Shown here: one piece after another, positions 156-49,379 of the stretch
Layout of the letters: each line of letters begins with the position of its first letter
Position numbering within the stretch: the first letter of the stretch is position 1
Assembly: GCA_001776785.1 (NCBI GenBank)
Contig: MFDF01000016.1
Span: 1 to 53,607 of the forward strand
Direction: 5' to 3'
DNA from: Candidatus Daviesbacteria bacterium RIFCSPHIGHO2_12_FULL_37_16
Lineage (GTDB): Bacteria; Patescibacteriota; Microgenomatia; Daviesbacterales; UBA10151
Length of the DNA stretch: 53,607 nt
Notes under the pieces: model-generated
What the model saw: only the letters and a program-made list of their open reading frames with translations
The model's database searches: none
What the model was told of the DNA's origin: nothing
Position numbers and translations under genes: made by a program

Positions 156-2126
156 ATGGCATTAGAACAAGTTGGTCAGAACACTCCAGATACCTCAGAA
201 CTCTTATCTATTTTCGCAGCTCACAGAAATCAAGAGAAACAACTTTCATGGAGTGGTCCTTTGAGTGAATATTTAGCACTTGTTGGGGAAAATCCTAAAG
301 TAGCCAGACTGTCCCATGCCAGAGTATATGACATGATTAGTGCTAGGGGTGTGGAAGCTCAAGGTGAAGGTAAACCCCCAAGATATAAATTTTTTGAAAG
401 TGAGTTGTTTGGAGTAGATGAGCCAATATCACAGATAGTGGATTATTTTTCTGCAGCTGCCAGAGGATTAGAGGTCAGGAAGAGGATTTTACTATTGATG
501 GGTCCAGTTGGAGGAGGTAAATCTACAGTAGTGGCTATGTTGAAGAGAGGGCTTGAAGAATATACCAGAACACCTGAAGGTGGGGTTTATGCTATAAGCG
601 GATGTCCAATGTATGAAGAACCACTGCATCTTATTCCTGATGCTCTGAGGCCTGAGGTCTCCAGGGTTCTTAACGTAAAAATTGAAGGTGATTTGTGCCC
701 TCATTGCAGGATGGAACTTTCTGATAGGCATGATGGTAAATATGAAGATGTTGAGGTGGTCAGGTATGCTTTTTCTGAAAAAGAGAGAAGAGGAATTGGA
801 ACCTTTTCACCTTCTGATCCAAAGTCGCAGGATATCTCTGAGTTGACTGGTTCTATAGACCTGTCTACCGTAGGCAGATATGGGAGTGAGTCAGATCCAA
901 GAGCTTACAGGTTTGATGGTGAACTAAATATTGCCAATAGAGGAATGATGGAGTTTATAGAGATGTTAAAGTCAGATGAGAAGTTTTTGTATGGACTTTT
1001 AAGCTTATCCCAGGAGCAGTCAATTAAGACAGGCAGGTTTGCTATGATTTATGCTGATGAGGTATTGGTATCCCATACTAATGAGTCTGAATATAATGCT
1101 TTTGTAGCAAATAAAAAGGGTGAGGCCCTGCAGGACAGGATTATTCAGGTCAAGGTTCCCTACAACTTAAGGTTATCTGATGAGATGAAAATTTATGATA
1201 AGCTTTTGAGGGATACAACAGATATTGCTATTGAAAGGGCTCCTTTGGATGGTGAGGTACATATATCTCCTGGTGTTTTAAGGGCAGCGGCTATGTTTGC
1301 TGTATTGTCCAGGTTGACTCCAACTAAAAAAGAAGGGGTGAATTTAATGACAAAGCTTAAGCTTTATGATGGTCAGGATGTTGGAGATTTAAAGCAAAAA
1401 GATTTGCGAGAACTTAAGGAAGAGGCGGCTGAGACACGTGAAGGTATGGATGGTATTTCACCAAGATACATAACCAATAGGCTATCTTCTGCGCTAGTCC
1501 AGGAAGGTGCGCAGTGCCTAAATCCAATAGATGCTCTCAGGTCTTTTAGGGATGGTTTAGAGAGTGTGCCTGGTTTGACTAAAGAAAAAAAGGATGAATA
1601 TTTAAAACTTCTTGGAGAAGTGAGGGGTGAATATGATGAGAAAGCTAAAACTGATGTGCAGAGAGCATTTATTGGCTCCTTTGAAGATAACATCCAGACA
1701 ATAATGGATAACTATATGGATAATATAGAGGCTTTCTGCAACAAGAGTAAGGTTAAGGATGCTTATACTGATGAAGAGGTGGATCCTGATGAGAGGTTGA
1801 TGAGAGAGATTGAGGAACAGATTGGGGTGACTGATGGCCAGAAAGCTGGTTTCAGGCAGGAAATTGTTAATATAATGGGGTCTAAACTCAGAAAGGGCGA
1901 AAAATTTGATTCTACAAGTCATGAGAGGTTAAGAGAGGGATTGGAAAAGAAGCTGTTTGCTGATATGAAAGATATGGTTAAAGTAACCACTTCTACCAAA
2001 ACACCTGATGCAGATCAGCAGAAGAGGATTGACGATGTGCAGTCAGCATTGATTAGAGAGAGAGGTTACTGCACATGCTGTTCTTCTGAACTCTTAAAGT
2101 ATGTAGGTAGACTTCTTAACCGCTAA
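156..2126 (+). CDS. prkA: PrkA/YeaG family AAA+ ATPase / serine protein kinase
   Basis: Walker A GPVGGGKS, CPMYEEPLHLIP, DPRAYRFDGELNIANRGMMEFIEM; first gene of the canonical three-gene operon. Confidence 0.95.
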   Translation: MALEQVGQNTPDTSELLSIFAAHRNQEKQLSWSGPLSEYLALVGENPKVARLSHARVYDMISARGVEAQGEGKPPRYKFFESELFGVDEPISQIVDYFSAAARGLEVRKRILLLMGPVGGGKSTVVAMLKRGLEEYTRTPEGGVYAISGCPMYEEPLHLIPDALRPEVSRVLNVKIEGDLCPHCRMELSDRHDGKYEDVEVVRYAFSEKERRGIGTFSPSDPKSQDISELTGSIDLSTVGRYGSESDPRAYRFDGELNIANRGMMEFIEMLKSDEKFLYGLLSLSQEQSIKTGRFAMIYADEVLVSHTNESEYNAFVANKKGEALQDRIIQVKVPYNLRLSDEMKIYDKLLRDTTDIAIERAPLDGEVHISPGVLRAAAMFAVLSRLTPTKKEGVNLMTKLKLYDGQDVGDLKQKDLRELKEEAAETREGMDGISPRYITNRLSSALVQEGAQCLNPIDALRSFRDGLESVPGLTKEKKDEYLKLLGEVRGEYDEKAKTDVQRAFIGSFEDNIQTIMDNYMDNIEAFCNKSKVKDAYTDEEVDPDERLMREIEEQIGVTDGQKAGFRQEIVNIMGSKLRKGEKFDSTSHERLREGLEKKLFADMKDMVKVTTSTKTPDADQQKRIDDVQSALIRERGYCTCCSSELLKYVGRLLNR

Positions 2127-2134
2127 TTTTAAAA

Positions 2135-3316
2135 ATGGGTGTTGAACTTTTTTTGTCCAGTCATCAGGTAAGGTTTGATGGTATGGGAGATAAGGCTTCC
2201 AGGGATGTGGCGCGCCATAACGAAAAGATTAAGGATGTAATAAGGCAGCAGCTGCCTGGCATTATTGGAGAAGAATCAATTATTACTGGCAGCGATAAAG
2301 GAATTGTTAAAATTCCAATCAGGAGTCTGGAAGAGCCTTATTTTAAGCATGGGGATAACAGTGCTCAAGAAGGTTATGGACAGGGTGATGGTAATACCCA
2401 AATTGGTGATGTTATTGGCCAAGTGCCTAGTAATGAGCCTGGAAATGGTCATAAACCTGGCGAAATTCCCGGGATTGACTACTTAGAGGTTGATGTGACA
2501 ATTGACCAGTTGGCTGCCTGGATGTTTGAGGATCTGGGGCTGCCTTTTTTAGAAAACAGAGGGAAGGCTATAATACCTTCAGAGCATGTTAAATTTGATG
2601 ATATAACCAAAAAAGGGCTGATGGGAAATTTGGATAAGAGAAGGACTGCCCTAGAGAATATCAGGAGAAGGGCGCTGGGTGGGTTAGAACCGGTTTTTGA
2701 AGATGTCAATGAGGATGATTTAAGATTCAGAAACTGGGAAATCAAAAAAAGAGAGGAATCCAATGCAGTGGTTATAGCAATGAGGGATATCTCAGGGAGT
2801 ATGGGAGAGTTTGAGAAGTATATATCCAGAAGTGCATATTTTTGGATGACCAGATTTTTAAGGACTAAGTATGAGAATGTTGAGATAGTTTTTATAAACC
2901 ATCAGACTGAGGCTAAAGAGGTAAATGAGGAGGCATTTTTTTATTCAGGTGAGAGCGGAGGGACAAAAGTCTCTTCTGCTTATCAGCTGGCCTGTGATAT
3001 AACAAAACAAAGATATCCAAAAGAGGATTGGAATACATACCCATTCCATTTTTCAGATGGGGATAACTGGGGTGAGTTGGATAATATTAAATGCAAGGAT
3101 TTAATATTAAGAGGACTTGATGAGTTGGGGTGGAATGCTTTTGGATATGCTGAAATTCAGGAGGGGGGCCGGCGTTCTGCCAGCACTTTAATGACAGTAA
3201 TGGAAGAGATAGAACATGAAAGGTTAATGAAAGCTGTTATTACTAGTAAGGATGAGGTCTACGGTGCAGTTAAAACTTTTTTTGGAAAAACTGAGGCTTT
3301 AGCAGCTGCTTTATAA
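2135..3316 (+). CDS. yeaH: YeaH/YhbH (DUF444) protein with vWA-like C-terminus
   Basis: IPIRSLEEPYF, DLRFR, MRDISGSM MIDAS-like motif, ESGGTKVSSAY, YPFHFSDGDNW; follows prkA. Confidence 0.93.
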   Translation: MGVELFLSSHQVRFDGMGDKASRDVARHNEKIKDVIRQQLPGIIGEESIITGSDKGIVKIPIRSLEEPYFKHGDNSAQEGYGQGDGNTQIGDVIGQVPSNEPGNGHKPGEIPGIDYLEVDVTIDQLAAWMFEDLGLPFLENRGKAIIPSEHVKFDDITKKGLMGNLDKRRTALENIRRRALGGLEPVFEDVNEDDLRFRNWEIKKREESNAVVIAMRDISGSMGEFEKYISRSAYFWMTRFLRTKYENVEIVFINHQTEAKEVNEEAFFYSGESGGTKVSSAYQLACDITKQRYPKEDWNTYPFHFSDGDNWGELDNIKCKDLILRGLDELGWNAFGYAEIQEGGRRSASTLMTVMEEIEHERLMKAVITSKDEVYGAVKTFFGKTEALAAAL

Positions 3317-3317
3317 C

Positions 3318-4853
3318 ATGGAAACTATAAGTGATGATCAAAAACCCTCTGTTCCCATTATTTTGAGAGGCGGCGGAGCTGTAGAGCTTGATTTAAAAGA
3401 CAGTGTTTCAGCCATTGCTGAGATCTCTGAGGAAGTTGGTTTGAAGCCATGTAAAACTTACTTTGATATGGTTCCAGCTGAGACTATGTATGAATATGGG
3501 GCATATGGTATTCCAGGCAGGTTTGGTCACTGGACTCATGGTAGGGATTACTACAGGATGAAGACCATGTATGACCATGGTTTTTCTAAAATTTACGAGC
3601 TGGTGATAAATGATGATCCGGCTTATGCTTATCTTCTGGAGACAAATCCTCCTATAGCTAATAAATTAGTGGTGGCTCATGTGGTGGGACATGTTGATTT
3701 TTTTCAGAAGAATATGACCTTTAGCCATACAAACAGGAGGATGGTGGAGACTGTCCAGCAAACAGCTGCTAGGTTTGCAGAATATGAAGATCTTTATGGA
3801 ATTGATGCGGTTGAGGCAGTAATTGATGCTGCAATATCACTTAGCAAAAATATTGATACCCATCCAAAAGGATTTAACCGGTTACCCAAGGATCAATATG
3901 TTGCCGAGAGTTTGAGAAGGTCGCGTGATGAGCTGAAGGGGAAGGGTATATCCACATCAGAATATGATGACATTTGGAGTTTGGGGGCCCCTAAGAAAGA
4001 AGAACCAAATGAACGGCCTAAGATAACTGTTCCTTATGAGGCAGACCCTGATTTGATGTGGGTTATTTCAGAATTTTCACCAATTTTAATGGATTGGCAG
4101 AAGGATATATTACTTAGTGTGAGGGCTGAGCAGCAGTATTTTATCCCCCAAATGTTGACTAAGATAATGAATGAAGGCTGGGCTTCACTCTGGCATACCA
4201 GGATAACCAGGGAGCTTATTGCACGGGGTTTAGTGAGTGATGACGAGGCAATGCAGTATGCTCGATTGCACAGCGGAGTTATTTCAGGAAATAGACGCAA
4301 CCTTAATCCCTATGGACTGGGGCTCAGGATTTGGGAAGATATTGATGATAAGTATCATGGAAGGGTAGATTGGGGTGAAGAAAGAGAGATTGATAGGTGG
4401 GGAGAGGTGATAGATCCAGAAAGTTATGTGGGCAGGGAAGATCATGATATTTTCAGGGTGAGGGAAACCATGGTAGACCAGGGGTTTTTGCGAAACTTTC
4501 TTTCAGGAAGAATTATCAGGGAGCTTGATCTGTATGGTTATAGAAGAGAAGGTGACAGGCTTGTGGTAGAAGAGAAAGATCCACAAAAAATCAGGGAAGG
4601 GTTGGTTGCCTCTATGGATAGATGGGGTTTACCGAGCATTGTTATTCCAAAAGGAGGAGCAAACTATACCAGCAGCAGGGAACTTTATTTAGAGCATGAG
4701 TTTGAGGGGGAAGAGCTTGATGAGAAATATGCTCAGGAGACTTTGAAGAGGGTTTTTTATCTCTGGGGAAGGCCTGTGCATTTGCAGGCTAGAATAAGAG
4801 GCAGTGAGACTACAATCCACTGCTCTGAGGGCCCTACAGTTTTAACTGTATAA
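3318..4853 (+). CDS. spoVR: SpoVR/YcgB family protein
   Basis: YGIPGRFGHWTHG, KIYELVIN, AHVVGHVDFF, TKIMNEGWASLWH, NPYGLG, LWGRPVHL. Confidence 0.95.
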   Translation: METISDDQKPSVPIILRGGGAVELDLKDSVSAIAEISEEVGLKPCKTYFDMVPAETMYEYGAYGIPGRFGHWTHGRDYYRMKTMYDHGFSKIYELVINDDPAYAYLLETNPPIANKLVVAHVVGHVDFFQKNMTFSHTNRRMVETVQQTAARFAEYEDLYGIDAVEAVIDAAISLSKNIDTHPKGFNRLPKDQYVAESLRRSRDELKGKGISTSEYDDIWSLGAPKKEEPNERPKITVPYEADPDLMWVISEFSPILMDWQKDILLSVRAEQQYFIPQMLTKIMNEGWASLWHTRITRELIARGLVSDDEAMQYARLHSGVISGNRRNLNPYGLGLRIWEDIDDKYHGRVDWGEEREIDRWGEVIDPESYVGREDHDIFRVRETMVDQGFLRNFLSGRIIRELDLYGYRREGDRLVVEEKDPQKIREGLVASMDRWGLPSIVIPKGGANYTSSRELYLEHEFEGEELDEKYAQETLKRVFYLWGRPVHLQARIRGSETTIHCSEGPTVLTV

Positions 4854-4857
4854 AAGG

Positions 4858-4916
4858 TGTGACCCCAGCTGGATATATCACAATTTTTTAAATTGCTGAA
4901 CCAGCGACAAATTGAT
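4858..4916 (-). pseudogene. Duplicate 3' half of tRNA-Lys with a 23-nt hairpin replacing 2 nt of the T-loop
   Basis: tgtgaccccagctggat (4858-4874) is identical to 5032-5048; after the insert 4875-4897, gaaccagcgacaaattgat matches the tRNA's gaaccagcgaccaattgat. Confidence 0.8.
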
Positions 4917-4955
4917 AACACACCCAATCCGCCAGTTGGCGGATTGCAAGAGTCT
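4913..4955. repeat. Palindromic element ACACCCAAT-[hairpin]-ATTGCAAGAGTCT, copy 1
   Basis: tgataacacacccaat ccgccagttggcgg attgcaagagtct; flanks shared with copies at 4993-5032 and 18386-18417. Confidence 0.85.
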
Positions 4956-4958
4956 CTA

Positions 4959-4996
4959 TGTGAGGGCGCAGGGATTCGAACCCTGGACCGAATGAT
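4959..4996 (-). pseudogene. 3' half of a different tRNA (Lys-like) sequence
   Basis: Minus strand reads ATCATTCGGTCCAGGGTTCGAATCCCTGCGCCCTCACA: intact T-arm CAGGG-TTCGAAT-CCCTG plus acceptor 3' strand, no 5' half. Confidence 0.75.
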
Positions 4997-5032
4997 AATA
5001 CACCCAATTTGCTACGCAAATTGCAAGAGTCT
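4993..5032. repeat. Palindromic element ACACCCAAT-[hairpin]-ATTGCAAGAGTCT, copy 2
   Basis: tgataatacacccaat ttgctacgcaa attgcaagagtct. Confidence 0.85.
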
Positions 5033-5033
5033 G

Positions 5034-5105
5034 TGACCCCAGCTGGATTCGAACCAGCGACCAATTGATTAAGAGTCAACTGCTCTACCGCTGAGCTATG
5101 GGGCC
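5034..5105 (-). tRNA. tRNA-Lys(CTT)
   Basis: GGCCCCA TAGCTCAGCGGTAGAGC ... TTGA-CTCTTAA-TCAA ... GCTGG TTCGAAT CCAGC TGGGGTC A. Confidence 0.96.
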
Positions 5106-5159
5106 ATCACTGGCTAATTTTACTAAAAATTGGATATTTTTGCTATTTTTGGAGATAAA

Positions 5160-5375
5160 CTATTTTTCCCACTGGGCTTTTTCTGCTTTTTCTACTTCTC
5201 CTGCAATGTTTAATTCTGCTGGGTGTTCATCATCTGCTTTTTGGTAAAGACCCATTTCATGGGCATTTTCTAAGGTGTCATCATCTGATTCTAAATCAGG
5301 AGTATCTCCAACTAGTGAGGTTTCACCACTATCATCATTATCACCTGTTAGATTGTGTTTTTTATCATCATTCAT
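5160..5375 (-). CDS. Small acidic hypothetical protein
   Basis: 71-aa ORF filling the gap between two tRNAs; TAGAAT 6 nt before ATG. Confidence 0.7.
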   Translation of the reverse strand: MNDDKKHNLTGDNDDSGETSLVGDTPDLESDDDTLENAHEMGLYQKADDEHPAELNIAGEVEKAEKAQWEK

Positions 5376-6276: not shown

Positions 6277-6910
6277 GAGGTAAAGTTACTGCTGAGAGTA
6301 TCCCAAAAGAGGATCCCACTAAAAATCCCCCAATCACATCTGTGGTCCAGTGTTCACCTAAGTAGATTCTGGAGATAAGCATGGTTAATAAGAAACAGGA
6401 TAATAGGATGATAGAGAACAGTCCTTTTTTAAGGCTGGATTTAAGATAAATATAGGTCATTAAAAAAACTATTAAAAAAGCAGTCCTGGTAACATGGCCT
6501 GAGGGGTATGAATAGTCTGTTTGGATAAAGTGTGAGGGGAAATCAAACTTAATTACTCCCCTATACATAAAAAAGGGCGGGCCCGGGTGATATAAAAAGA
6601 CTTTGCCAAAAAGCTCCATTAAGAGGGCTAGGGGGAGCAAAAACAGGCTCAAAGCAGTTAGCCAGTACTTTTTTATGAGCAGATAGAAAAAGATGATTAA
6701 CCAAATTACCCCGGTTATTTCAAGTGAGCCTATAATTGAAAATACTGAAAAGGAATAGTCAAACCTGCGGGGGATTTTATCCTGGAACCTGACTGTAGTA
6801 TCAAAATCATGCTGGGTAAATAGTTCTTTTGAAACCAGGTAGGAATAGAAAATAAAAAAGGCAAAAAGAAGCATTGAGATTAAAAGTAAGAATTTTTTGG
6901 ATTTCAGCAT
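6221..6910 (-). CDS. PAP2-family membrane phosphatase
   Basis: SYPSGH and SRIYLGEHWTTDVIGG motifs; start taken at ATG 6910 (MLKSKK). Confidence 0.9.
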   Translation of the reverse strand: MLKSKKFLLLISMLLFAFFIFYSYLVSKELFTQHDFDTTVRFQDKIPRRFDYSFSVFSIIGSLEITGVIWLIIFFYLLIKKYWLTALSLFLLPLALLMELFGKVFLYHPGPPFFMYRGVIKFDFPSHFIQTDYSYPSGHVTRTAFLIVFLMTYIYLKSSLKKGLFSIILLSCFLLTMLISRIYLGEHWTTDVIGGFLVGSSFGILSAVTLPPKSGGKLQDQIKLHSARY

Positions 6911-16788: not shown

Positions 16789-16854
16789 GGTGGTCGTAGC
16801 CCTGCCTGCCGGCAGGTTAACCTGCTGCAAGCATGGCAGGTCAATGGCAGAGCA
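16789..16854 (+). pseudogene. Duplicate 5' part of tRNA-His interrupted by a 40-bp palindromic insert
   Basis: GGTGGTCGTAGC (16789-16800) + TCAATGGCAGAGCA (16841-16854) equals the first 26 nt of tRNA-His at 17117. Confidence 0.85.
16801..16840. repeat. Two adjacent CCTGC...GCAGG palindromes
   Basis: cctgcctgccggcagg ttaa cctgctgcaagcatggcagg; relatives at 21409-21431 and 39393-39410. Confidence 0.8.
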
Positions 16855-16859
16855 CTCTG

Positions 16860-17105
16860 ATGTATTACGTTTATATCCTCAAGAGTCAAAAGGATAATAA
16901 TTTTTATACTGGAATTACTAATAATATTGAAATCCGCTTAAGACAACATAATATTGGGTATTCTTCCACAAGGTCAACTAAGAATAGAGGTCCATTTATA
17001 TTAGTATTTGCTCAAGAGTGTTCTGACAGAAATGAGGCACATGCTTTAGAAAAGTACCTCAAATCAGGTGAAGGTAGAGAATTAAGAGATAAACTGTTAA
17101 AATAG
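16860..17105 (+). CDS. Small GIY-YIG nuclease
   Basis: MYYVYILKS...FYTGITNNIEIRLRQHN...STKNRGPF...EAHALEKYLKSGEGR; start at ATG 16860. Confidence 0.93.
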   Translation: MYYVYILKSQKDNNFYTGITNNIEIRLRQHNIGYSSTRSTKNRGPFILVFAQECSDRNEAHALEKYLKSGEGRELRDKLLK

Positions 17106-17116
17106 GCATTGTTTAT

Positions 17117-17192
17117 GGTGGTCGTAGCTCAATGGCAGAGCATCAGATTGTGGATCTGACGGTTGCGGGTTCAACTCCCGTCGATCACCCCA
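17117..17192 (+). tRNA. tRNA-His(GTG)
   Basis: G-1 GTGGTCG ... TCAGA-TTGTGGA-TCTGA ... GCGGG TTCAACT CCCGT CGATCAC C CCA. Confidence 0.97.
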
Positions 17193-18385: not shown

Positions 18386-18417
18386 AACACACCCAATTCT
18401 TTCAGAATTGCAAGTCT
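18386..18417. repeat. Palindromic element ACACCCAAT-[hairpin]-ATTGCAAGTCT, copy 3
   Basis: aacacacccaat tctttcaga attgcaagtct. Confidence 0.75.
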
Positions 18418-26619: not shown

Positions 26620-26693
26620 GCCCCCATAGCTCAGTGGATTAGAGCGGGACGGTTCTAACGTCAAGGTCGGGGGTTCGAATCCCTCTGGGGGTG
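26620..26693 (+). tRNA. tRNA-Arg(TCT)
   Basis: GCCCCCA TAGCTCAGTGGATTAGAGC ... GACG-GTTCTAA-CGTC ... GGGGG TTCGAAT CCCTC TGGGGGT G. Confidence 0.92.
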
Positions 26694-26695
26694 CA

Positions 26696-26731
26696 AGATT
26701 TAAATTTCGGATTCATTCGGGATTTAAATCT
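26696..26731. terminator. Inverted repeat right after tRNA-Arg
   Basis: AGATTTAAAT...ATTTAAATCT arms. Confidence 0.5.
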
Positions 26732-26768
26732 TTCTCCTCGTTTGGAATTCTAAACTAATCTCTGATTT

Positions 26769-26825
26769 GGTTCGTTAATCCGAAGGATTAGGACATATCC
26801 CTCTGGGGGTGCTCACTCTGGGGGT
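26769..26825 (+). repeat. Two duplicates of the tRNA-Arg 3' end, the first with a hairpin in the T-loop
   Basis: ggttcg[ttaatccgaaggattaggacat]atccctctgggggtgc (to 26812), then ctctgggggt 26816-26825. Confidence 0.8.
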
Positions 26826-48503: not shown

Positions 48504-48522
48504 TTCAACATCGGAGGTTGAA
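48504..48522. repeat. REP-like palindrome downstream of the Y1 transposase
   Basis: TTCAACATCGGAGGTTGAA, one mismatch from a perfect ACCTCGGAGGT core; degenerate ttcaacctaagg follows. Confidence 0.65.
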
Positions 48523-48550
48523 TAAGTTTCAACCTAAGGATTTTAGGTAT

Positions 48551-49222
48551 TTATTCTAATACCAAGTGTTTCAGCCTGGATAATTCCTTTTGATAATCAG
48601 CCTGGTTAAAAACAAACTCTTTATATTTATCCTTGTTTTTAAAAAACCCCATTACAATCTCTGTATGTGTAAAGTGCGCGGAGTTGTCAGACAGGTAATC
48701 TTTAAAGGATGACCAAGGATATTTTTCCAAGTTTTCTATTTTAACTAAAAAACTAGTTGATGGATTTAGGTGAATATACCTTGAGAGGTGGACTAATTGC
48801 TCATCAGACTCTACCCTGACTGATTTAAACATTGATTGGAATAAGGGACCTACTCTGTCCTCTTTTAGGTTAAAGTATTTTACATATCCATTTTGTAAAT
48901 TCCTCATGAAAGTTGTGATTCCAAATTCACTAACCTGTTTTAGTATAAAATGAAAATGGTTAGGCATTAGGCAAAAAGCTAAAATTTTAACATGCAACTT
49001 TTTTTCTTTTTGCATGGAAGCCATAATCTCTTCTTTCATTTCTTCTGGGAGTTTGTTAAAGTGCGAGTAGCTGGTAGGAGTTTCCTCAAATCTGTAATAA
49101 TCAACTAAACTTAGGAATCTTTGATAATCTTTTGTTCGGGAGAAGATAGGTAATCTGGCTACTCCCCTGTTAAAAATGTGGTATATTTCATCAGGAGCTA
49201 GGACAAGATTTCTTGATGGCAT
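48551..49222 (-). CDS. REP-associated tyrosine (Y1/HUH, IS200-like) transposase
   Basis: YHIFNRG, FCLMPNHFH (HUH), GPLFQ, RYIHLNP, YPWSS. Confidence 0.92.
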   Translation of the reverse strand: MPSRNLVLAPDEIYHIFNRGVARLPIFSRTKDYQRFLSLVDYYRFEETPTSYSHFNKLPEEMKEEIMASMQKEKKLHVKILAFCLMPNHFHFILKQVSEFGITTFMRNLQNGYVKYFNLKEDRVGPLFQSMFKSVRVESDEQLVHLSRYIHLNPSTSFLVKIENLEKYPWSSFKDYLSDNSAHFTHTEIVMGFFKNKDKYKEFVFNQADYQKELSRLKHLVLE

Positions 49223-49267
49223 TATTCTTAGTATACTACAGTATATTCCTTATGTTTGAAGCAATTT

Positions 49268-49280
49268 AACACCTGGTGTT
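49268..49280. repeat. REP-like palindrome upstream of the Y1 transposase
   Basis: AACACC-T-GGTGTT. Confidence 0.6.
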
Positions 49281-49308
49281 GATTTATAGAGGACGGATTT
49301 TCGCTGAG

Positions 49309-49379
49309 CTGCGGGACTAGGGCTCGAACCTAGATAAACAGATCCAAAGTCTGTTGTCCTACCATTAGACGATCCCGCA
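49309..49379 (-). tRNA. tRNA-Gln(TTG)
   Basis: TGCGGGA TCGTCTAATGGTAGGAC A ACAGA-CTTTGGA-TCTGT ... CTAGG TTCGAGC CCTAG TCCCGCA G. Confidence 0.96.

Follow-up and report, generated by a model that had tools for sequence, protein, structure and literature searches.

The 53,607-nucleotide stretch of DNA analysed here (hereafter the window), from Candidatus Daviesbacteria bacterium RIFCSPHIGHO2_12_FULL_37_16, carries one live tRNA-Lys(CTT) gene followed by what appear to be two dead, 5'-truncated copies of a tRNA-Lys gene. In each dead copy, a hairpin of about 30 nt (GCAAT, a variable stem-loop, then ATTGGGYGTRTT) would occupy the former anticodon loop, right after T36, with a related insert in the T loop of the last one. 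We propose, with moderate confidence, that this array results from a tiny gene-less hairpin insert landing in single-stranded loops, combined with repeated replacement of the tRNA-Lys gene, the dead 3' halves being left behind. The window is part of contig C16 of the 1.02-Mb genome of a groundwater bacterium of the Candidate Phyla Radiation, CPR (G000; 27 contigs, completeness score 99.9%).

The tRNA-Lys(CTT) array of the window

In the sense of the tRNA, the array consists of the intact tRNA-Lys gene, a hairpin element, a foreign tRNA 3' half, a second hairpin element and the 3' half of the resident gene. This order had been proposed from the DNA letters alone (hereafter the sequence-only reading), and ARAGORN, Rfam and sequence comparison bear it out. 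The two units have the same layout: a GACTCTT remnant of 7-8 nt, a hairpin of 28-31 nt built as GCAAT-stem-loop-ATTGGGTGTRTT, and a tRNA 3' half (Table 1). Alignment to the live gene places the insert directly 3' of T36, with the loss of one A, which agrees with the earlier description of an insert that opens the anticodon loop. The resident half has a third, related hairpin of 25 nt in its T loop, which is absent from the sequence-only reading. In its last 13-14 nt (positions 4859-4872), this half is an exact copy of the tRNA end, and only 6 nt separate the end of the array from the stop codon of a convergent spoVR-like gene.

The foreign 3' half has no counterpart among the 40 tRNAs of the window genome. 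Its source was not found at up to 3 mismatches in 96 genomes of the order, nor in 27 tRNA-Lys(CTT) genes from relatives. Its sequence makes it unable to pair with the resident 5' half. Contigs of four runs, from four studies, cover the locus from position 4400, 4596 or 4757 through 5071 with 0 differences. Because these independent contigs reproduce the array joined to the tRNA 3' half, the array is not an assembly artefact, and the misassembly that the sequence-only reading had envisaged does not apply. The unitig contigs of the same four runs end within the conserved part of the tRNA; contig breaks in conserved tRNA sequence are expected in metagenomes. Fifteen sequencing runs contain at least half of the sequence words sampled, and no RNA run was found to contain the stretch.

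A dispersed hairpin with conserved pairing

We searched for other copies of the hairpin. The flank pattern suggested by the sequence-only reading has three matches in the window, against 0 in 100 shuffles, and a genome-wide search returned none beyond these three in the 1.02 Mb. The pattern TTGCAAT-N(5-25)-ATTGGGYGTRTT has 13 matches in 7 of the 96 genomes of the order, distributed over five genera, while the reversed-pattern control gave 0. Identical or nearly identical 30-33-mers are found in different genera with different flanks, one 30-mer being present in two genera with three different flanks. Insert 2, taken with the two preceding T, is the same at 31 of 33 positions as a copy in genus g284. 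The hairpin cores are a few variants common to several genera.

Covariation, context and flanking stems were counted on 16 aligned copies, with hairpin lengths of 28-33 nt. The covariation score of this alignment was reached by 0 of 500 shuffles, 92% of the hairpin cells are paired and 5 of the 8 pairs vary on both sides. The earlier statement that pairing is conserved and sequence is not therefore holds across the 16 copies. Remnants of tRNA-Lys(CTT) contain five copies (two each in the window and in G372, one in G169); another is located next to other tRNA debris (contig C6 of the window genome) and one is in a protein gene; the remaining nine are in stems without any tRNA in a locus of about 3 kb. 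Most copies occupy the loop of a stem that already exists. At least 7 consecutive flanking pairs surround 9 of the 16 copies, and shuffles average about 4-6. Judged from these sequence comparisons, the hairpin is a family-wide insert and not a piece of the tRNA.

Beyond the order, 60 stretches of viral contigs fit a loose version of the pattern, none of them with a convincing hairpin and a flanking stem together. In a genome collection, at least 118 stretches fit the loose pattern; among the matches listed, the true element occurs in three records (two Candidatus Daviesbacteria, one identical to the G016 copy). A metagenome scan with one exact 30-mer gave three matches, all of them to the known locus of G285.

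Filled and empty sites

The copy in a protein gene provides a filled and empty comparison. In G210, the hairpin lies in frame inside an intact open reading frame (ORF) of 569 aa encoding arginyl-tRNA synthetase (ArgRS), where it corresponds to a 10-aa gap relative to the ArgRS of the window genome. We aligned eight congeners, three of which are informative, the other five being unalignable or cut off at the site. In these three (G369, G371 and G374), the gene is continuous as ..GGT(G/C/A)ACTT|A(A/G)GTTACTT.. (the bar marks the site), without the 30-31 nt. The insertion site is the loop side of a palindrome already present in the empty alleles. The ArgRS copy is a bare hairpin with no accompanying cassette.

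In ArgRS as in the tRNA, the insert is located 3' of ..CTT and one A is lost. For this reason GACTCTT, which the sequence-only reading took as the start of the element, is better described as its preferred landing site than as a part of it. The anticodon loop of tRNA-Lys(CTT) in relatives (27 genes), which reads ..GACTCTTAA.. or ..CCTCTTAA.., presents this landing site. At the level of aligned DNA, the insertion step is shown by one filled/empty pair and by the shared copies in differing flanks. The sequence-only reading had offered three options: scars of a miniature tRNA-targeting element, stacked att (attachment) sites, or processed tRNA-half RNAs. The first is the best supported as far as a miniature element is concerned; its specificity for tRNA is not retained, as the hairpin is also found in other stem-loops and in the ArgRS frame.

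Proposed turnover of tRNA-Lys alleles in genus g63

A comparison of unit number between related genomes, also proposed earlier, proved informative. We read ten tRNA-Lys(CTT) loci in genus g63, which is not the genus of the window genome; one of them is cut short, and the number of units ranges from 0 to 2. G372 has two units and G169 has one, decayed traces are visible in G361 and G285, and five of the ten loci have nothing behind the gene. A promoter-like box (TTGTTAGAATATAC) is found upstream at an unchanged distance in the g63 loci, and across loci the 5' remnants vary in length from about 7 to 15 nt.

The alleles differ between the live gene and the pieces behind it. In G169, the live gene is the common allele of the genus and the downstream half resembles the allele that is live in G026. 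In G372, the live gene is a third allele, with both acceptor strands different from those of its congeners, and it is followed by a G026-like half (with its own T-loop insert) and then by the common allele. The second unit of G372 follows the common allele from roughly position 22 through to the end, interrupted by the hairpin at 36|38, and the remnant AAAGCAATGGACTCTT, which reaches back into the D arm, agrees with the half after it and not with the half before it. This pattern implies that the hairpin lies within the old gene, that the 5' truncation is a separate junction of variable position (hence remnants of 7-15 nt), and that whole genes were exchanged, not 3' halves alone. A 9-nt target duplication at the G372 insertion was considered and dropped, the upstream match being the ordinary promoter-to-tRNA spacer.

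The following history would account for these loci. The insert would have spread within this CPR family by landing in the loops of existing stem-loops, 3' of ..AC(TC)TT and before A, and tRNA-Lys(CTT) would be hit repeatedly because its anticodon loop, GACTCTT|AA, is such a site. A hit gene would be useless, and an intact gene, sometimes the allele of a relative, would be re-established at the same promoter. The old gene would then lose its 5' part by illegitimate joining or deletion, and since its 3' half remains behind, the halves would stack with the newest upstream. The insert is probably mobilised in trans on single-stranded DNA by a hairpin-specific enzyme, such as an IS200/RAYT-like Y1 protein or a single-domain GIY-YIG protein. 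A bolder extension is speculative, and we hold it to be possible rather than probable: the hairpin would be a new kind of mobile DNA reduced to its smallest working unit. A dedicated small nuclease or transposase would cut it out and paste it, on single-stranded DNA, into the loops of other hairpins, and tRNA genes would be favoured targets because their arms fold as single strands. CPR bacteria would then survive by the continual re-acquisition of tRNA genes or gene ends from relatives, leaving layered "fossil beds" of halves, and throughout the phylum the target choice of the element would be coupled to the turnover of tRNA genes.

T-loop modules behind other tRNA genes

Partial tRNA copies are not restricted to the Lys locus. 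In the window genome, 11 of 41 tRNAs (10 of the 40 found by ARAGORN, plus an intron-bearing tRNA-Asn) have a downstream copy of their 3' end placed after a related hairpin tail. The copied end comprises the last 13-16 nt and is mostly 104-116 nt downstream (65 nt for Leu-TAG, 160 nt for Lys-CTT). No distant second copy of any tRNA end was found in the window genome. In relatives, 6 of 43 tRNAs (29 loci) have such downstream copies.

Nine tRNAs, that is all but Lys-CTT and the short Leu-TAG variant, are followed by one shared module. It begins with a long hairpin directly 3' of the tRNA and continues with a linker, a small conserved hairpin (AGATC-TTT-GATCT), GGTTCG, a variable hairpin, a tail (GGGTGTRTTATC, GGACATATC or GGATATC) and the tRNA-end copy from the T loop on. 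Three module tails are the same as in the Lys units. In relatives, the first long hairpin is a clear terminator with an A-tract, a GC stem and a T-tract. The best pairing partner of the tRNA-end copy is the linker just after this first hairpin in 10 of 15 units from five genomes, and cognate partners pair more strongly than non-cognate ones (mean of -11.7 vs. -9.1 kcal/mol; permutation P = 0.019). The linker could pair equally well with the live tRNA's own end.

The 18-nt inner hairpin of the module was tried as a wider marker and rejected. Among 301 genomes of the class, at up to 2 mismatches, it is found 8 times in the window genome and once or twice in 26 others, like the reversed control, and none of the loci read outside the window genome adjoins a module-bearing tRNA. 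On these counts, the sequence of this inner hairpin is lineage-specific.

Several tRNA loci display further rearrangements. The tRNA-Asn(GTT) gene (C6 94176-94470; L326 301-509) escapes plain ARAGORN; a group I intron (RF00028, 76.7 bits) interrupts its anticodon loop, and the T-loop module behind it extends across contigs C6 and C19, whose ends overlap. In front of tRNA-His (17118-17192) lies a 90-aa single-domain GIY-YIG ORF (16833-17105; PF01541, E = 2.5e-18), itself preceded by a displaced 5' copy of tRNA-His (about 16789-16854) with a 40-nt palindromic insert in the D loop, an arrangement that mirrors the 3' cases. The 5' end of tRNA-Thr TGT (C3) is repeated exactly over 11 nt at a point 63 nt upstream of the gene, and that of tRNA-Glu CTC (C23) at 93 nt upstream, the DNA in between being palindromic; duplication therefore affects tRNA 5' ends as well. 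An origin of the partial copies in reverse-transcriptase stops at modified bases (copies starting at 38 and 59) was set aside: the copies have no CCA, in one of them the shared sequence continues for 6-7 nt past the tRNA end, and in ArgRS there is simply an insertion of DNA.

Candidate enzymes

We then looked for genes that could move such an insert. The window genome has two tyrosine recombinase genes, both off the window contig: one is beside the tRNA debris on C6 and the other looks Xer-like by size and score, a label that is only a candidate. Two further kinds of gene are the IS200/RAYT-like Y1 genes, of which there are two, and the single-domain GIY-YIG genes, of which there are three (window 16833-17105, C6 and C23). 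Homologues of Y1 were found in 81 of the 96 genomes of the order, the highest number in any one of them being 13 matches, and small GIY-YIG genes number from 2 to about 14 per genome in five relatives.

The two Y1 genes (window 48508-49379, with the protein encoded at 48551-49222, and C8 209049-209760) are near the tRNA genes Gln-TTG and Tyr. The one on C8 has the repeat ACACTTCCGATGTGTCAA on both sides, and hairpins with a TCCGAT loop and a variable stem occur about six times in the genome, as a second, separate repeat family. NTS-like inverted repeats (GTCATTCCGAG..) flank a 98-aa GIY-YIG gene on C23 (about 6300-6700) and are also found on C13 (about 3800-4900). In the C6 region (71164-73950; L035 3165-5951), tRNA-fMet and its module are followed by a block composed of a 247-aa ORF, the tyrosine recombinase gene, a CrtO-like ORF and an inverted tRNA-Ile(TAT). 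After the latter come a foreign tRNA 3' fragment, the hairpin copy CCTGCAAT..ATTGGGTGTATA and a Leu-like 3' fragment.

Alternative explanations

Several observations weigh against an insert landing in loops combined with gene turnover. No enzyme is positionally tied to the insert. Both Y1 genes are flanked by the other hairpin, with its TCCGAT loop, and G355 has three copies of the insert and no match to the Y1 protein, so a RAYT link to the insert is unsupported. Position does not support a link to small GIY-YIG genes either: none was found near a hairpin copy in the five relatives checked, and the nearest pair in the window is 1.3 kb apart. Copies fitting the strict pattern do not exceed 4 per genome, and the flanking stems of the two Lys units of the window are no better than those of shuffles. 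In G372, old allele 1 precedes old allele 2, an order that a simple extension of the state seen in G169 would not give, and the remnants of the window are too short to be assigned to an allele. All dead pieces begin 7-15 nt from the insert, which is tighter than two independent events predict and suits a cassette equally well. Finally, a simple insert does not explain the T-loop modules, which have in common an inner block that is conserved and a stretch able to pair with the tRNA end; a cassette replacing gene ends fits them better.

Such a cassette is the first alternative to consider. The hairpin would be the right end of a gene-less cassette carrying its own tRNA 3' part, entering at the loop and keeping the gene intact while the old 3' part is displaced; repeated entry would stack the displaced parts. 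Entry could involve site-specific recombination, single-strand recombination, or transforming DNA that had been cut beside the hairpin and then recombined, and hairpin repeats are described as directing the cutting of single-stranded transforming DNA in the Ssn system (PMC11893778, in the part of the article used here). Every dead piece does start at the insert. The modules of about 105-130 nt (65 nt for Leu-TAG) that end in a direct copy of the tRNA end behind 11 of 41 tRNAs are what such a cassette would leave, their cognate pairing is the stronger one, and the copies are identical to their own tRNA across genera. However, the G372 remnant and the half after it come from one allele, the remnant extends into the D arm, and the live G372 gene differs in both acceptor strands, so that more than a 3' half was exchanged there. 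The bare hairpin in ArgRS does not fit either, and the foreign half of the window could not have paired with the resident 5' half. We consider this explanation rather unlikely.

Two other explanations were examined, both less likely. If the hairpins and halves were working RNA signals, they would be transcribed with the tRNA as terminators, processing signals or tRNA-like minihelices, or would be tiny introns that allow use of the downstream halves. Both inserts are indeed terminator-like on the tRNA strand, with no other terminator before the convergent spoVR-like gene; compensatory changes preserve the helices; folding is much stronger in the units than in shuffles (mean z of about -3.7); and the ArgRS frame stays open across the hairpin. 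In raw folding energies, the tRNA strand is the better one in 12 of 15 units, but this preference is gone in shuffle-corrected z-scores: with composition controlled, folding is equal on both strands (z of -3.78 vs. -3.59), the sense strand being better in 8 of 15. Moreover, the halves lack a complete 5' exon in front of them, pairing between the foreign half and the resident 5' half is impossible, and intron-aware ARAGORN reports only the tRNA with the group I intron. In the units only tRNA exceeds the Rfam threshold, and at E-values up to 5 the interval 4780-5140 gives nothing but tRNA-like noise and no intron family. A role as RNA signals is therefore improbable in our view. Less likely still, and in our opinion very unlikely, are stacked attL and attR sites in the classical sense, left by integrase-bearing islands or phages: each would have brought a 3' half with it on integrating at the anticodon loop of tRNA-Lys, and later deletions would have spared only the ends of these elements. 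Partial tRNA copies running from the loop to the exact 3' end are a hallmark of such elements, serial integrations displacing older partial tRNAs are described for tycheposons (bioRxiv 10.1101/2020.12.28.424599, in the portion drawn on here), and on C6 a tyrosine recombinase gene adjoins tRNA debris with a hairpin copy. Nevertheless, only 28-31 nt and a remnant of 7-12 nt, without any ORF, lie between the pieces, the tyrosine recombinase genes are on other contigs, and the genome has no distant second tRNA-end copy. The loop that should serve as crossover site is itself interrupted. Direct-repeat identity from the loop to the 3' end is mixed: the last half agrees apart from one substitution and a T-loop insert, and the first half is a foreign allele. 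The hairpin is also present in the ArgRS frame and in stems unrelated to tRNA, and the same deletion would be needed at 11 loci. The att sites of the sequence-only reading, taken in this integrase sense, find no support: there is neither element body nor integrase between the repeats, the 5' remnants are of unequal length and a foreign allele makes up one of the halves.

Comparison with known systems

The literature offers analogies only, in REPIN/RAYT elements, Ssn repeats, Rickettsia palindromic elements (RPEs) and the partial tRNAs of integrase elements. REP and REPIN repeats are moved by RAYT (IS200-like Y1) transposases and, like the insert, are small gene-less palindromes that form a hairpin, have a conserved tail which gives them an orientation, and are presumed to be mobile in trans on single-stranded DNA (PMC3116915, in the sections used here). 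RAYT-like genes are present in our genomes as well, two of them in the window genome, as in 81 of the 96 genomes of the order. In contrast, the insert has few copies per genome instead of tens to hundreds and a different tail (compared with the same sections of PMC3116915), its copies occupy tRNA remnants and the loops within other stems, with one more inside an ORF, and the RAYT genes here are flanked by TCCGAT-loop hairpins in its place.

The NTS/SRM hairpin repeats of the Ssn system are recognised by single-domain GIY-YIG nucleases acting on single-stranded DNA and are tied to the cutting of incoming single-stranded DNA. They are defined as 20-50-nt hairpins with an orienting conserved flank, a definition that covers the insert (both points from part of PMC11893778), and small single-domain GIY-YIG genes are numerous in the genomes studied here. 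Unlike these repeats, the insert does not flank a small GIY-YIG gene in the genomes checked, one such gene having GTCATTCCGAG.. repeats instead, and an association with tRNA genes is not mentioned in PMC11893778, whose main text has 0 occurrences of "tRNA".

RPEs measure 100-150 bp and are found in intergenic DNA and in frame in protein genes, aminoacyl-tRNA synthetase genes included (PMC1779305, in the part consulted). The insert is likewise palindromic, with intergenic copies and one in-frame copy out of 16, in the ArgRS gene of G210. It differs from the RPEs described there in its size (28-33 nt), in the phylum of its hosts and in its striking targets, the loops of tRNA genes. The att copies of tycheposons, as presented in the portion of 10.1101/2020.12.28.424599 used here, resemble the array in that a tRNA is followed by copies of its 3' part ending exactly at the gene end, the older ones being pushed onward. 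The array departs from them by having no integrase, no cargo and no intact att core, and only tens of bases between the pieces instead of kilobases.

Group I introns also place foreign sequence in the anticodon loop after U, and the window genome has a true one in tRNA-Asn(GTT). The hairpin, with its 28-31 nt, matches no ribozyme family and has no 5' exon, only 7-15 nt of the 5' part being left. The same Rfam tool that found the real intron gave none at the Lys array. In full-text searches of the literature, which do not prove absence, no description was found of a hairpin insert of about 30 nt in the loops of CPR tRNA genes, although the supplementary motif lists of the Ssn paper may hold a relative. 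The insert is apparently undescribed, and would represent a class of very small mobile inserts that repeatedly hit tRNA genes.

If confirmed, a class of mobile DNA would exist at about 30 nt, far below RPEs (100-150 bp), with hairpin loops as its structural target. Typical miniature inverted-repeat transposable elements are also much longer than about 30 nt. It would explain the partial copies that surround tRNA genes in tiny CPR genomes (here 11 of 41 tRNAs). The stacked halves would be a record of past tRNA alleles at each locus, and hence of the exchange of tRNA genes between genera. Annotation may be misled, as halves and in-frame hairpins could be mistaken for att sites, islands or real protein features. 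The abundant small GIY-YIG and Y1 proteins would form testable pairs with defined 40-nt single-stranded substrates.

Coordinates and neighbouring features

Table 1. Positions in the window of the tRNA-Lys(CTT) array, of a lone hairpin copy and of one T-loop module
Feature	Coordinates	Strand	Basis and description
Intact tRNA-Lys(CTT)	5033..5105	-	ARAGORN; Rfam RF00005, 74 bits; CCA not encoded, ends at A73 + C74
AGACTCTT, 8 nt, leftover 5' side of the anticodon arm of dead copy 1	5025..5032	-	Sequence; also fits the preferred target of the insert (ArgRS empty sites in congeners, ..ACTT|A..)
Hairpin insert 1, GCAATTTGCGTAGCAAATTGGGTGTATT, 28 nt	4997..5024	-	GCAAT-TTGC-GTA-GCAA-ATTGGGTGTATT; 8-bp stem, GTA loop; terminator-like on this strand
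Foreign tRNA 3' half, 37 nt (tRNA positions 38-74)	4960..4996	-	T arm CAGGG/CCCTG; acceptor 3' strand CGCCCTC
Spacer and remnant ATAGAGACTCTT	4948..4959	-	Sequence
Hairpin insert 2, 31 nt	4917..4947	-	GCAAT, 9-bp stem, AACT loop, ATTGGGTGTGTT; same ends as insert 1, other core; terminator-like
Resident tRNA-Lys(CTT) 3' half, T loop interrupted	4859..4916	-	1 substitution vs. live gene, in the variable loop
Third related hairpin, AGCAATTTAAAAAATTGTGATATAT, 25 nt	4873..4897	-	AG-CAATTT-AAAA-AATTG-TGATATAT; takes the place of T-loop GAAT in the last dead copy (vs. live gene)
Lone hairpin copy, no adjoining tRNA	18386..18413	-	Gap between two convergent ORFs, 11 nt past a stop codon
Palindrome-rich module, 118 nt, behind tRNA-Arg(TCT) (26620-26694)	26695..26812	+	Ends in a copy of the last 16 nt of the tRNA

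The array abuts a prkA / DUF444 (yeaH-like) / spoVR-like trio (window 156-4853), carried here by a CPR genome of about 1 Mb. On the other side, a 71-aa acidic ORF without Pfam match (5160-5375, minus strand) lies between tRNA-Lys(CTT) and tRNA-Arg(TCG). The sequence of the initiator tRNA of the window genome has the bacterial C1:A72 mismatch.

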